Source: an uncultured Planctomycetota bacterium
GTDB taxonomy: Bacteria > Planctomycetota > Planctomycetia > Isosphaerales > Isosphaeraceae
Assembly: GCA_963737655.1 (NCBI GenBank)
Contig: CAVTTN010000002.1
Span: 6,592,001-6,656,000, forward strand
Direction of reading: 5' to 3'
DNA: 64,000 nt
Numbering within the stretch: the first letter of the stretch is position 1; each line of letters starts with the position of its first letter. The position numbers are program-made. Of the stretch, positions 31,901 to 34,900 are shown in pieces.

Positions 31901-34900
31901 CATGAAGGGGACGACGATCCCCATCGAGATCACGATCTACAGCGATCGCTCCTTCGAGTTCATCACCAAGAGCCCGCCCGCGGCGGTCCTCCTGAAGCAG
32001 ACGGCCGGTATCGCCTCGGGCTCGGCCGAGCCCCACAAGACCAAGGTGGCGACGGTCACGGCCGAGCAGGTCCAGAAGATCGCCGAGACCAAGTTCCAGG
32101 ACCTCAACGCCCGGGACATGGAGCACGCCTGCCGGATCATCGCCGGGACCGCCCGGAGCATGGGCATCGACATCAAGGGGTGAACCGGATGGCTTGGACC
32201 CTGATCTCTTGGATATCGCCCGCCACCGATCGGTGACGGGCGGCGAGCTCAGTGGTCCGAGCAGGCTCCTTATCAGGGCCGGGTGAGGGTTCGATTCCCT
32301 CGCCGCCTACTTCGAAGCGATCATCTCGCGCCGGCGCGACCGCCCGCCGGAACTCTCGCGAGGATTCCTCACATCGGCGGCAGCCCCCAACGAAGGGAGC
32401 GAACGGTTTGGCAGTCTATTCGAAGCGATTCCGGGCCCTGAAGGAGAAGGTCAAGCCCGACCCTCTCCCCCTGGCCGAGGCCGTCAAGCAGCTCAAGACC
32501 TTCGGGACGACGAAGTTCAACCAGACCGTGGAGGTCTCGACGAACCTCGGGATCGACCCGAAGCAGAGCGATCAGAACGTCCGCGGCTCGGTGGCGCTGC
32601 CCCACGGGATCGGCAAGGCGGTCCGGGTGGCGGTGTTCGCCCAGGGGGACAACGCCGAGAAGGCCCGGGCCGCCGGCGCGGACATCGTCGGCGGGGATGA
32701 CCTGGCCCAGAAGATCAAGGGCGGGTTCATGGATTTCGACGTGGCCCTGGCCACGCCGGACATGATGGGCGTCGTCGGCCCCCTGGGCCGCGTCCTGGGT
32801 CCCCGAGGCCTGATGCCCAGCCCCCGCTCGGGCACCGTGACCACCGACATCACCTCCGGCGTGAAGGAATTCAAGGCCGGCAAGATCGAGTTCCGGTCGG
32901 ACAAGGGCGGCAACGTCGCGGCGCCGGTCGGCAAGATCAACTTCAGCGAGGAGCAACTGGTCGAGAACATCCAGACGTTCCTCAACCACCTCCGCTCGGT
33001 CAAGCCGACGGCCGCCAAGGGCACGTACATCCGATCGATCACCATCTCGGCCACCATGAGCCCGGGCATCCGGGTGCTGGCCTAAGGGAGGGCGGAGTGG
33101 GCGGTGGGCCGTGGGCAGTGGGCAGTTGAAGAGGATAGGGAGAGACCGGTCTTTGCTTTCGTCTTCAACTGCCCACTGCCCACGGCCCACCGCCCACTCT
33201 CAACGATGAGCAAATACGTCAAAGAATTGATGATGGATCAGTTCAAGGCCGAGCTCAACGGCTCGCGGTCGGTGCTGATCCTGGATTTCAAGGGGCTGGA
33301 CGCGGTCTCGGAGAATAAGCTCCGCCTGGACCTGCGCAAGAAGAAGATCCACATGAGGGCGGTGAAGAACACGTTGGCCCGGCGGGTCTTCGCCGACGCG
33401 GGCATCCACGGCCTGGACGCGGTCCTCAGCGGCCCGAGCGTGGCCGTCTGGGGCGGAGACGGCGTGGCCGAGCTGGCCAAGGAGCTGTTCGACCAGGTCA
33501 AGAAGCTGAAGAAGCCGGCGATCAAGGGCGGCGCGGTCGATGGCGTGGTGATCGGCCCGGCCCAGGTCGAGGACATCACCAAGCTGCCGAGCCGCGAGGC
33601 CCTGATCGGCCGGGTGGTCAGCCTGGCCCTGGCGCCGGCGGCCCGCGTGGTGTCCCTGGCCAACGCCCCGGCCTCCGGCCTGCTGGGCCAGTTGAAAACG
33701 CTGGCCGAGCCGAAGGACGGCGAAGGCGGCGAGGCGGCCCCGGCCGCCGAAGGCGCCTGATCGGCCGACCGGCCTCCCTCTCCTCTTCCCTCGACATTCC
33801 CAGGGCCCGACGAATCGGGCCCGGTGAGTATTCTCGAACGACCGTGCGAACCCCGCACCCCTCCCGCACGAAGAAAGGATCGCAGACGCGATGGCCACCG
33901 CCGAGATGACCAGCTTCGCCGACAACATCAAGACCCTGGGCGACTCGATCGTCAAGCTGACGGTCCTGGAGGCCAAGAGCCTCGGGGATTACCTGGAGAC
34001 GGTCCACGGGATCAAGGCCGCCGCCGTCGCGGCCGGCCCGGCCGTGGCCGCCCCGGTCGCCGTCGCCGCCGAGCCGGTGGCCGAGAAGACCGAGTTCGAC
34101 GTCCACCTCGAGAACTTCGGGGCCCAGAAGATCAACGTGATCAAGGTCGTCCGCGCCGCCACCGGCCTGGGCCTGAAGGAGGCCAAGGACCTGGTCGAGT
34201 CCGCCCCCAAGGCGATCAAGACCGGGATCTCCAAGGCCGACGCCGAGAAGCTCGTCAAGGAGCTCCAGGAGTCCGGGGCCACGGCCTCGGTCAAGTAATC
34301 GAACCCCCCTCCGCCTCTCGATCCGGCCGACGGCCCGCCGCCCCCTCCTCGCGAGGGGCCCGGCGGGCAGGTCGGCGACACCCCCCGAATCCCTCGCCCC
34401 GGCGATGGGCCCTCCCCACTTGCGGGGCGGGTCGGCCCGCCGGGGTGCTCTGGCGCGCGGGGAATCCTTCGGGACGATCGTGGATCATGCCCCCTCTCCT
34501 CCCGGGCCGGGACCGACCGACCGACCGGATCGGATTTGACGTGACCTCCGCGACCGCCCTCGCCCCCGTCCGAACCGCCGAGCCGATCATCTCCCCTTGA
34601 GGAGCGCGACGATATGCCCAACTCGACCGTCCGTCGCATCACCCCGAAGACCCCCCGGAACTTCGGCAAGATCCACGACGAATATCCCGTCCCGGACCTC
34701 ACCGAGATCCAGACCCGCTCCTACGAGCGGTTCCTCCAGGCCGACCTGCCGGCCGAGAGCCGCCAGGACTCGGGCCTCGAGGGCGTCTTCCGCGAGATCT
34801 TCCCGATCGAGTCGTACGACAAGACCCTGAAGCTCGAATACATCAAGTTCGACCTCGGCAAGCCTCGCTACGAGCCCGACGAGTGCCGCCAGCTCCGCCT

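Follow-up and report, generated by a model that had tools for sequence, protein, structure and literature searches.

The window analyzed here, a 64,000-nucleotide stretch of the genome of an uncultured bacterium of the Isosphaeraceae (Planctomycetota), contains a ribosomal protein operon in which a tRNA gene with the anticodon UAU lies in the spacer between rplK and rplA. The features at this locus are:

31644..31743, no strand assigned: long perfect hairpin of (GGGCAGT)n repeats in the nusG–rplK interval (35 repeat loci in the genome)
31758..32183, + strand: rplK (ribosomal protein L11), the upstream neighbor of the tRNA (TIGR01632, 194.9 bits; cut-off 141.85)
32238..32309, + strand: tRNA-Ile(UAU) gene (ARAGORN; RF00005, 48 bits; covariation across 16 copies)
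32333..32399, + strand: conserved element of the tRNA–rplA interval, GGCGCGACCGCC ... GGCGGCAGCC, followed by a GGAG-type ribosome-binding site (alignment of 30 spacers)
32408..33085, + strand: rplA (ribosomal protein L1, TTG start), the downstream neighbor of the tRNA (TIGR01169, 311.9 bits; cut-off 216.3)
33095..33199, no strand assigned: second hairpin of the same (GGGCAGT)n repeat, in the rplA–rplJ interval (35 repeat loci in the genome)

ARAGORN calls a tRNA-Ile(tat) at 32238–32310(+), and the Rfam tRNA model RF00005 matches 32238–32309 with 48 bits (E 9.4e-9), above its gathering score of 29; together with the TIGR matches of the flanking genes, these bear out the survey's finding of a UAU-anticodon tRNA between rplK and rplA. 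The gene is 72 nt long up to the discriminator A at 32309, with base 32310 belonging to the trailer and CCA not being encoded. The anticodon TAT occupies 32271–32273 in a CUUAUCA loop that places C37 at 32274, while none of the 21 stem pairs is broken and G18G19 and the T loop are preserved, the 1:72 pair being G-U. Thus, it is a genuine tRNA gene and not an obvious pseudogene. Of its earlier description as a canonical 73-nt cloverleaf, the cloverleaf stands but "canonical" is too strong a word, as position 8 (32245) is a G in addition to the C at 37. U8 and a purine at 37 are near-universal in tRNAs, and this tRNA has neither: among 16 aligned copies, position 8 is U in 14 and G in this copy alone, and position 37 is A in 14 and C in two, with A in the relatives G082, G080 and G019. 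A whole-genome search with RF00005 again returned 48 bits, the third lowest score among 44 matches, as compared to 63.2 bits for the copy of the closest relative (G082) and 66.2 bits for that of G056.

The bacterial tRNA-Ile identity set given in Table 1 of PMC9976931 comprises A73, C4-G69, U12-A23, C29-G41, A35, U36 and A38. Read from its sequence, the UAU tRNA carries every one of these, which agrees with its prior assignment to isoleucine; across the 16 aligned copies C4-G69 and A38 are present in all, and U12-A23, C29-G41 and A73 in 15 each. Its D loop, AGUGGUCC, has U at position 16 and C at 21; the G16, U20 and U21 rules, which the same table lists as minor determinants in E. coli, are specific to that organism. 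The t6A-modified A37, described in PMC9976931 and PMC3575796 as a strong determinant for the bacterial-type IleRS, is absent, and no t6A37 is possible on this tRNA because position 37 is a C.

The single-sequence fold of the UAU tRNA is unexceptional (z = −1.72) and ARAGORN gives false calls in this GC-rich genome, both of which would be expected if the tRNA-like fold had arisen by chance or were an artefact of the gene finder. Against this stand the RF00005 score (E 9e-9), the recurrence of the tRNA at this locus in 12 genomes, and compensatory change: 97.0% of the 336 cells in the alignment of 16 copies pair, and eight of the 21 pairs show two-sided change. Neither the pairing nor the covariation score was matched in any of 500 shuffles, and pairing in the slid controls was 42–53%. 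Hence, the four-helix cloverleaf is maintained through compensatory change, and we reject the artefact reading, which the L11/L1-flanked copies in relatives and the covariation statistics render extremely improbable.

Across the 121 genomes of the family, the UAU tRNA is found in the rplK–rplA spacer of 12 and anywhere in the genome of 36, where it falls into three sequence kinds. BLAST of the 73 nt returned matches in 17 of the 120 other genomes, and ARAGORN recovered a UAU tRNA at 16 of 18 fetched loci (the locus of this genome counted), 11 of which (this genome and 10 others) have L11 and L1 on either side; the twelfth genome, G044, was counted by coordinates. The genomes with the spacer tRNA occupy scattered places in a tree of 34 genomes built from NusG, L11, L1 and L10, and G081, which is nested within the genus of this bacterium, has an unrelated 233-nt spacer in place of the tRNA-bearing one. 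The proposal that this is an inherited gene with a fixed place in several genera is therefore upheld by the counts at the locus, the flanking genes and the tree; conservation in the family likewise holds, while the extent given for it does not, the UAU gene being commoner than was stated. Patchily distributed and dispersed over the tree, the UAU tRNA looks dispensable, and the copy of G012 is visibly degenerate. All spacer-locus copies have the UAU anticodon, with a loop that is invariant save for position 37. C37, which had been thought to be shared with G115 alone, occurs in four of the 36 UAU-bearing genomes—this one (G000), G007, G063 and G115—on four different sequence backgrounds, while G37 and U37 were not seen. 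The UAU tRNA is only 64% identical to the tRNA-Ile(GAU) of the same genome and falls with the array-type UAU tRNAs found in the family (76–78% identity), and its close relatives occur in tRNA arrays adjoining tRNA-Lys(UUU).

An alignment of 30 rplK–rplA spacers revealed that the element upstream of rplA is kept both with and without the tRNA, 23 of the 30 having the element but no tRNA. PMC3616713 describes, in other phyla, an L1 site immediately before rplA, and this element is likely an L1-binding leader; an Rfam search found no family for it. A scan for promoters and terminators around the tRNA found none, though it does not cover the signals of this phylum and is thus uninformative. The nusG–rplK hairpin is a copy of the genome-wide repeat and not a part of the tRNA. 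The microRNA matches that Rfam returned on the flanking hairpins were discarded, as none attains its gathering score and they reflect long perfect hairpins only.

The standard route for reading AUA is also present. The retention of tilS noted by the survey is confirmed by an intact gene with TIGR02432 matches of 165.9 and 162.6 bits (cut-off 93.6), albeit with a weak TilS_C match; tilS was found in 115 of the 121 family genomes and in all 47 of the high-quality ones. The presence of tRNA-Ile2(CAU), earlier left undecided, can now be answered in the affirmative: a tRNA(CAU) lies at G000:C2:3573862-3574193 in this genome and had been overlooked because a group I intron splits the gene after U36. 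Its 5′ exon ends in CAU and its intron in G; the 5′ exon of the corresponding Azoarcus gene also ends in CAU. The intron scores 48.9 bits with RF00028, slightly under the gathering score of 50, and RF00028 matches are present in 113 of the 121 genomes (46 of the 47 high-quality ones), with the same tRNA(CAU) exons at all 18 primary intron loci read as well as in this genome. By elimination and by its similarity to the third class of CAU tRNA in other Planctomycetes, we identify the split gene as the probable tRNA-Ile2. Since tilS and tRNA-Ile2(CAU) are both present alongside the UAU tRNA, the two AUA routes coexist in one genome, as had been suggested. ARAGORN and RF00005 searches found no initiator tRNA in this assembly, so that its set of CAU genes is not the full one. 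Among the eight genomes without an intron match (completeness 74–89% in those with a UAU tRNA), five carry the UAU tRNA, and in G036, an incomplete assembly, neither tilS nor the intron-bearing tRNA was found while an intact UAU copy is present at the rplK–rplA locus.

The introns also disposed of several other ideas. Sequence patterns run over the 121 genomes had yielded only Met-like and initiator-like CAU tRNAs, the intron-split genes having escaped them, and the full tRNA sets of G015 (45 tRNAs), G060 (47) and G108 (59 read) showed no CAU-Ile2, UAU or Lys-UUU tRNA. An "orphan TilS", i.e., tilS without tRNA-Ile2(CAU) and in the absence of tRNA-Lys(UUU), was rejected, as the exons around the RF00028 introns are those of tRNA(CAU) and tRNA-Lys(UUU). 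TilS acting on a Met-like tRNA or on tRNA-Lys(CUU) was dropped once the introns were found, as was a changed meaning of AAA; of 196 sites with this codon, 175 align to Lys.

The codon at stake is almost unused: AUA accounts for 529 of 1,916,476 codons (0.028%) in a crude set of 4,280 ORFs, the earlier count being 479 in 2.19 million. The IleRS of this genome has the motif KCERCW, with a Trp at the site of S. aureus W890 and E. coli W905 (aligned to residues 886–890 of 1FFY) and hence neither Arg nor Lys at the wobble-contact site. Trp occupies this site in all 21 family genomes read, 15 of which have the UAU tRNA.

That tRNA-Ile(TAT) and tilS occur together in Planctomycetes has been published before: Table S1 of Taniguchi et al. 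2013 (PMC3575796) lists both in, among others, the Planctomycetes Rhodopirellula baltica SH1 and Planctomyces limnophilus, as well as in Cyanothece PCC 7424 and Ferrimonas balearica. As in those genomes, a UAU tRNA-Ile gene, a tilS homologue and a CAU tRNA occur together here; the differences lie in the rplK–rplA location, the patchiness within one family, the G8 and C37, and the group I intron of the partner tRNA-Ile2(CAU), and our literature search found no paper on any of these for this family. For Cyanothece and Ferrimonas, whose IleRS has Trp at the wobble-contact site as does the one here, the authors take the UAU tRNA to be redundant and, probably, charged poorly (PMC3575796). By contrast, the Mycoplasma mobile system described there, in which the IleRS needs an Arg (Arg865) at this site, lacks both tilS and tRNA-Ile2(CAU) and reads AUA with a UAU tRNA bearing t6A37 and an unmodified U34. 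The present genome shares the gene-encoded UAU anticodon with M. mobile, but has tilS, tRNA-Ile2(CAU) and the Trp, and could not form t6A37. In the Bacillus subtilis suppressor tRNA-Ile1(UAU), derived in the laboratory from tRNA-Ile1(GAU), U34 takes over AUA, binding it strongly and AUG weakly (PMC3919564); the tRNA here is likewise an Ile tRNA with U34, but its affinity is to the array-type UAU tRNAs rather than to its own tRNA-Ile(GAU). The Azoarcus pre-tRNA-Ile(CAU), with a group I intron in its anticodon loop (PMC3984707, PMC13168695), is the closest known parallel to the partner tRNA(CAU) and not to the UAU tRNA; in this family the intron, at the same place in a CAU tRNA-Ile gene, is a predicted one and spread across a planctomycete family.

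We favor, with a probability of roughly 0.55, the view that this is a genuine, redundant and dispensable tRNA-Ile(UAU), which in the present genome most likely decodes AUA weakly or is in decay. On this view the gene goes back to an early member of the family and has since been lost many times; its product would be transcribed along with the ribosomal protein operon, excised by the ordinary enzymes of tRNA processing, aminoacylated by IleRS and put to use on the very rare AUA via a U34:A pair. It is redundant because TilS and the intron-bearing tRNA-Ile2(CAU) are also kept, and dispensable because of this redundancy. That this copy is probably a poor or decaying decoder, with a putative loss of function, is suggested by G8 and C37, by the score of 48 bits against 63.2 and by the Trp of IleRS. 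The intact pairs, G18G19 and T loop speak against decay, and the recurrence of C37 without G37 or U37 is more in keeping with tolerance or selection than with random decay. G8 and C37 are as read in the assembly sequence, where an error is possible; among 24 listed sequencing runs, none contains more than 0.07 of the sampled words. In some lineages, as the five genomes without an intron match, and in particular G036, hint, the UAU tRNA may be a working decoder.

A tentative alternative is that the tRNA works fully as a second AUA decoder in this genome too, topping up AUA reading under high ribosomal protein gene transcription, with C37 and G8 being tolerated or even useful, for instance in lessening AUG misreading. 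The intact cloverleaf, the conserved anticodon, A38 and Ile-type pairs, the C37 on differing backbones and the seeming dependence of G036 on the UAU tRNA alone would all accord with this. However, C37 cannot bear t6A, U8 is almost universal in tRNAs, the score is 15 bits below that of the nearest relative, IleRS retains its Trp, and the tRNA has been repeatedly lost from the locus; the decoder reading can in turn draw on B. subtilis and M. mobile, where U34, when unmodified, strongly prefers AUA over AUG (PMC3919564, PMC3575796). We regard as unlikely a role mainly as a processing signal, whereby cleavage by RNase P and RNase Z would split the rplK message from an rplA message beginning at its own L1-binding leader, with decoding being secondary or absent. 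The position of the tRNA inside the operon, directly 5′ of the leader-like element, and the lack of detected promoters or terminators would suit such a role; yet it has no need of an anticodon, while all 12 locus copies and the 36 UAU-bearing genomes of the family keep UAU, C32–U36 and A38 are invariant among the UAU copies, most spacers retain the element without any tRNA, and the array context beside tRNA-Lys(UUU) is one of decoding.

How AUA can be read as isoleucine while misreading of AUG is avoided is a classic problem of decoding, for which the bacterial solution is nearly always lysidine, and genomes with both a UAU tRNA and TilS have been proposed as intermediates between the two solutions. 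A rather doubtful extension of our results is that the family might form a natural series over all stages of the published lysidine-to-U34 switch, with C37 tuned rather than decaying: most genomes would have TilS and the intron-bearing tRNA-Ile2(CAU) only, about 30% both routes, and at least one lineage (G036), without tilS and tRNA-Ile2, would rely on the rplK–rplA tRNA-Ile(UAU) alone. If so, G036 would have made the switch without the replacement of Trp by Arg in IleRS that such a switch is believed to require, implying another way of charging the UAU tRNA, for instance through modification of U34. Split by group I introns, the standard tRNA-Ile2(CAU) and tRNA-Lys(UUU) genes of the family escape ordinary tRNA finders, and any claim from annotation that these bacteria lack a decoder would therefore be wrong. 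With many related genomes that have or lack the UAU gene at one highly transcribed locus, the family allows the gain, loss and decay of such a decoder to be compared.

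The spacer between the ribosomal protein genes rplK and rplA holds a tRNA gene with the anticodon UAU, which lies among several other elements of the window:

32238-32309, plus strand: tRNA-Ile(UAU) gene, recognized by its cloverleaf fold, ARAGORN and the Rfam tRNA model RF00005.
32333-32399, plus strand: conserved element upstream of rplA, from an alignment of 30 spacers.
31644-31743, 33095-33199 and 59365-59435, strand not given: long perfect (GGGCAGT)n hairpins, from repeat matching.

The tRNA gene is on the strand of both neighbours, 54 nt past the rplK stop and with 98 nt separating it from the rplA start codon (TTG); the surrounding order is tRNA-Thr, Tyr, Gly, Thr, tRNA-Trp, nusG, rplK, tRNA-Ile(UAU), rplA, rplJ. 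It displays a 7-bp acceptor stem with a G1-U72 pair and A as the discriminator, a D stem (GCUC/GAGC), an anticodon arm with the stem GGCUC/GGGCC and the loop CUUAUCA, a variable loop of 4 nt, and the T arm GAGGG-UUCGAUU-CCCUC; no CCA is encoded at its 3′ end. At 48 bits (gathering score 29) it has the third lowest score among the 44 RF00005 matches of a genome-wide search. Judged from the sequence and an alignment of 16 copies, it possesses all the bacterial isoleucine determinants listed in Table 1 of PMC9976931 (A73, C4-G69, U12-A23, C29-G41, A35, U36, A37, A38) bar A37.

The survey's finding that this tRNA is real and inherited at a fixed site is borne out by the relatives. BLAST with the 73-nt tRNA yields a match in 17 of the 120 other Isosphaeraceae genomes (hereinafter the family), ARAGORN calls tRNA-Ile(tat) in 16 of 18 loci including that of the genome under study (G000), and L11 and L1 flank the UAU tRNA on both sides in 11 loci, with a twelfth genome, G044, placed between rplK and rplA by coordinates. 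In the 16-copy alignment, pairing holds in 97.0% of the stem cells, and both sides have changed in 8 of the 21 pairs; the observed pairing or covariation score was reached by 0 of 500 shuffles, and slid controls pair at 42–53%. Thus, the spacer tRNA-Ile(UAU) is a real, inherited gene.

The element upstream of rplA reads GGCGCGACCGCC...GGCGGCAGCC, with a GGAG-type site after it, and is kept in 30/30 aligned spacers, with or without the tRNA. By analogy to the L1 sites preceding rplA described for other phyla in PMC3616713, it likely serves in autoregulation by binding L1; an Rfam search returned no match for it. The (GGGCAGT)n hairpins bracket the rplK-tRNA-rplA unit, and the repeat has strict matches at 35 loci in G000, being hairpin-like at 15; sub-threshold microRNA matches on these hairpins were set aside as spurious. 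Further along the window, ARAGORN calls an 89-nt 'tRNA-Ala(ggc)' (53089-53177) that the genome-wide RF00005 search did not match; in this GC-rich coding DNA the call is probably false.

A pattern search, with matches judged by eye and one extra match discarded as not tRNA-like, recovered UAU tRNAs in 34 of the 121 family genomes, and the addition of G012 and G016 from BLAST/ARAGORN brings the total to 36; an even sample of 70 other Planctomycetota genomes furnished a single instance of the identical pattern. These tRNAs fall into three sequence kinds, namely the spacer kind, an 'array' kind adjoining tRNA-Lys(UUU) in 15 family genomes, and a third, more canonical kind scoring 75–77 bits with RF00005. 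The spacer kind shows 76–78% identity to the array and G115-type copies and only 60–64% to the third kind, tRNA-Ile(GAU) and the CAU tRNAs. Among the 30 spacers with the best L1 matches, seven contain the UAU tRNA and 23 do not. On a midpoint-rooted FastTree phylogeny of NusG+L11+L1+L10 (34 genomes, 896 columns, no support values) the carriers are scattered: G081, with an unrelated spacer of similar length, nests among the three carriers of the G000 genus, and G010 and G015 lack the tRNA carried by their sisters G012 and G016. The simplest reading of this history is that the gene was inserted long ago and then lost on many occasions, and from this comparison the UAU gene looks dispensable.

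The standard route for decoding AUA combines TilS with tRNA-Ile2(CAU). As the survey had reported, G000 retains tilS: the gene is intact (TIGR02432, 165.9 and 162.6 bits) and the N domain of its product aligns with the G. kaustophilus TilS structure 3A2K, with a weak TilS_C match. It is present in 115 of the 121 family genomes, including 47/47 of high quality. In G093, rated 100% complete, the N-domain match (G093:C1:5882568-5883115) consists of two adjoining pieces in different frames, a pattern that either a frameshift or an error in sequencing could have produced. Searches with intron-free patterns recovered only Met-like and initiator-like CAU tRNAs in the family; a third CAU class with an Ile-like GGGC acceptor is seen in other Planctomycetes. 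Neither this class nor tRNA-Lys(UUU) turned up when G015, G060 and G108 were inventoried completely for tRNAs by intron-free searches, and AAA is nonetheless used at conserved lysines. We considered and rejected a family TilS devoid of a tRNA substrate, as group I introns hide the tRNA(CAU) gene. The Rfam group I intron model RF00028 matches 113/121 family genomes (46/47 of high quality), 83 above the gathering score and usually once per genome; the match in G000 (48.9 bits, E 7e-11) is slightly below the gathering score of 50. Two intron-split genes lie on contig C2 of G000, outside the window:

G000:C2:3573862-3574193, strand not given: intron-split tRNA(CAU) of the Ile2 type, from RF00028 and the flanking exons.
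G000:C2:3626925-3627297, strand not given: tRNA-Lys(UUU) split by a second group I intron, from exon and intron likeness to G060.

Joined, the exons of the former (GCGGCCC...GGGGA-CUCAU/AA-UCCCU...GGGCCGC-A, the slash marking the intron) make up a tRNA of the third class with the anticodon CAU; the intron interrupts it after U36 and has G as its last base. The same exons occur at all 18 primary intron loci read in other genomes; the intron spans 260–370 nt (loci L182-L193, L195-L198, L201, L203-L209), and the split gene escapes ordinary tRNA finders. The arrangement parallels that described for the Azoarcus pre-tRNA-Ile intron. The survey could not decide whether tRNA-Ile2(CAU) exists; the introns account for the seemingly absent TilS substrate, and tilS, tRNA-Ile2(CAU) and tRNA-Ile(UAU) are together in G000, with the two suspected AUA routes coexisting.

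The second, weaker intron splits tRNA-Lys(UUU) inside the anticodon (CUU/UUAA) also in G060, G089, G079 and G099 (L194, L199, L200, L202). RF00028 gives it 38 bits in G060 and does not reach E 0.01 on the G000 region, where the call is based on likeness to G060 (exons 100% and 93%, intron 83%). This split explains why intron-free searches of G015, G060 and G108 found no AAA decoder. We know of no earlier report that places a group I intron in tRNA-Lys of a bacterium, though no search was aimed at this point. Dense arrays, with as many as 16 tRNAs within 3 kb, place tRNA-Lys(UUU) and tRNA-Ile(UAU) side by side in L015, L016 and L018 (G031, G032, G040) and, by coordinates, in 12 more genomes. 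Both genes are intron-free there, and they duplicate precisely the pair of tRNAs whose core-genome genes are split by introns. The initiator-like tRNA(CAU) of the family can pair U1 with A72 and has just two G-C pairs beside the anticodon loop (L020, L021, L026, L027, L139, L176), and as many as six copies of it stand in tandem; its counterpart in five other Planctomycetes (L145-L149) has a C1xU72 or C1xC72 mismatch. A whole-genome tRNA search of the G000 assembly (3 contigs, 87.7% complete) did not find the initiator tRNA, tRNA-Val(GAC) or tRNA-Ser(CGA); the first two are tandem repeats in relatives, and these were therefore probably not assembled.

From its sequence, the G000 copy of tRNA-Ile(UAU) looks weakened. 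Position 8 is U in 14 of the 16 aligned copies, C in one, and G in the G000 assembly only. The survey's observation that C37 is shared with G115 alone holds in this alignment but not family-wide, as G007 and G063 also have it. The closest relative, G082, has U8, A37 and 63.2 bits; other spacer copies range from 42.7 to 66.2 bits, and that of G012 has broken D and T pairs. PMC9976931 and PMC3575796 count t6A37 among the strong determinants for IleRS of the bacterial type, to which the G000 enzyme, with a Zn-binding C-terminal domain, belongs. The Trp of its CERCW motif aligns to W890 in S. aureus R888-C889-W890 and is present in 21/21 family genomes read, 15 of which carry a UAU tRNA. Taniguchi et al. 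(PMC3575796) report that E. coli IleRS, with the same Trp, charges a UAU variant at ~1% of the efficiency of the native lysidine form and that Arg or Lys at this site restores charging, and they infer that UAU tRNAs are poor substrates in Trp-type genomes. Such features might be read as decay of the G000 copy, but several observations point against this: its helices are intact, C37 recurs in G007, G063 and G115 on differing backbones, and neither G37 nor U37 was seen among the UAU tRNAs from the pattern search over 121 family genomes. Moreover, of the eight genomes that RF00028 does not match, five carry a UAU tRNA, and the tRNA(CAU) 3′ exon was not found in these five either (assemblies 74–89% complete); in G036, one of those without a match and incomplete within that range, tilS was not found either, and its spacer UAU copy is intact. 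These genes may thus be missing from the assemblies alone.

Supplementary Table S1 of PMC3575796 includes, among organisms with tRNA-Ile(TAT), two Planctomycetes that likewise have tilS, Rhodopirellula baltica SH1 (GAT 1, TAT 2, CAT 4) and Planctomyces limnophilus (GAT 1, TAT 1, CAT 3); hence a UAU tRNA with tilS in one genome is a kind of finding already known. The discussion of that paper suggests that redundant decoding is a transitional state, and PMC3919564 describes an unmodified U34 Ile tRNA as binding AUA strongly and AUG weakly. Among open-access papers and preprints we found none that deals with a tRNA in the rplK-rplA spacer, with the UAU, CAU and Lys tRNAs of the family or with their introns. 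What is new is the location of the gene in the operon, its patchy history in the family, the G8/C37 state of the G000 copy as assembled and its intron-split partner gene.
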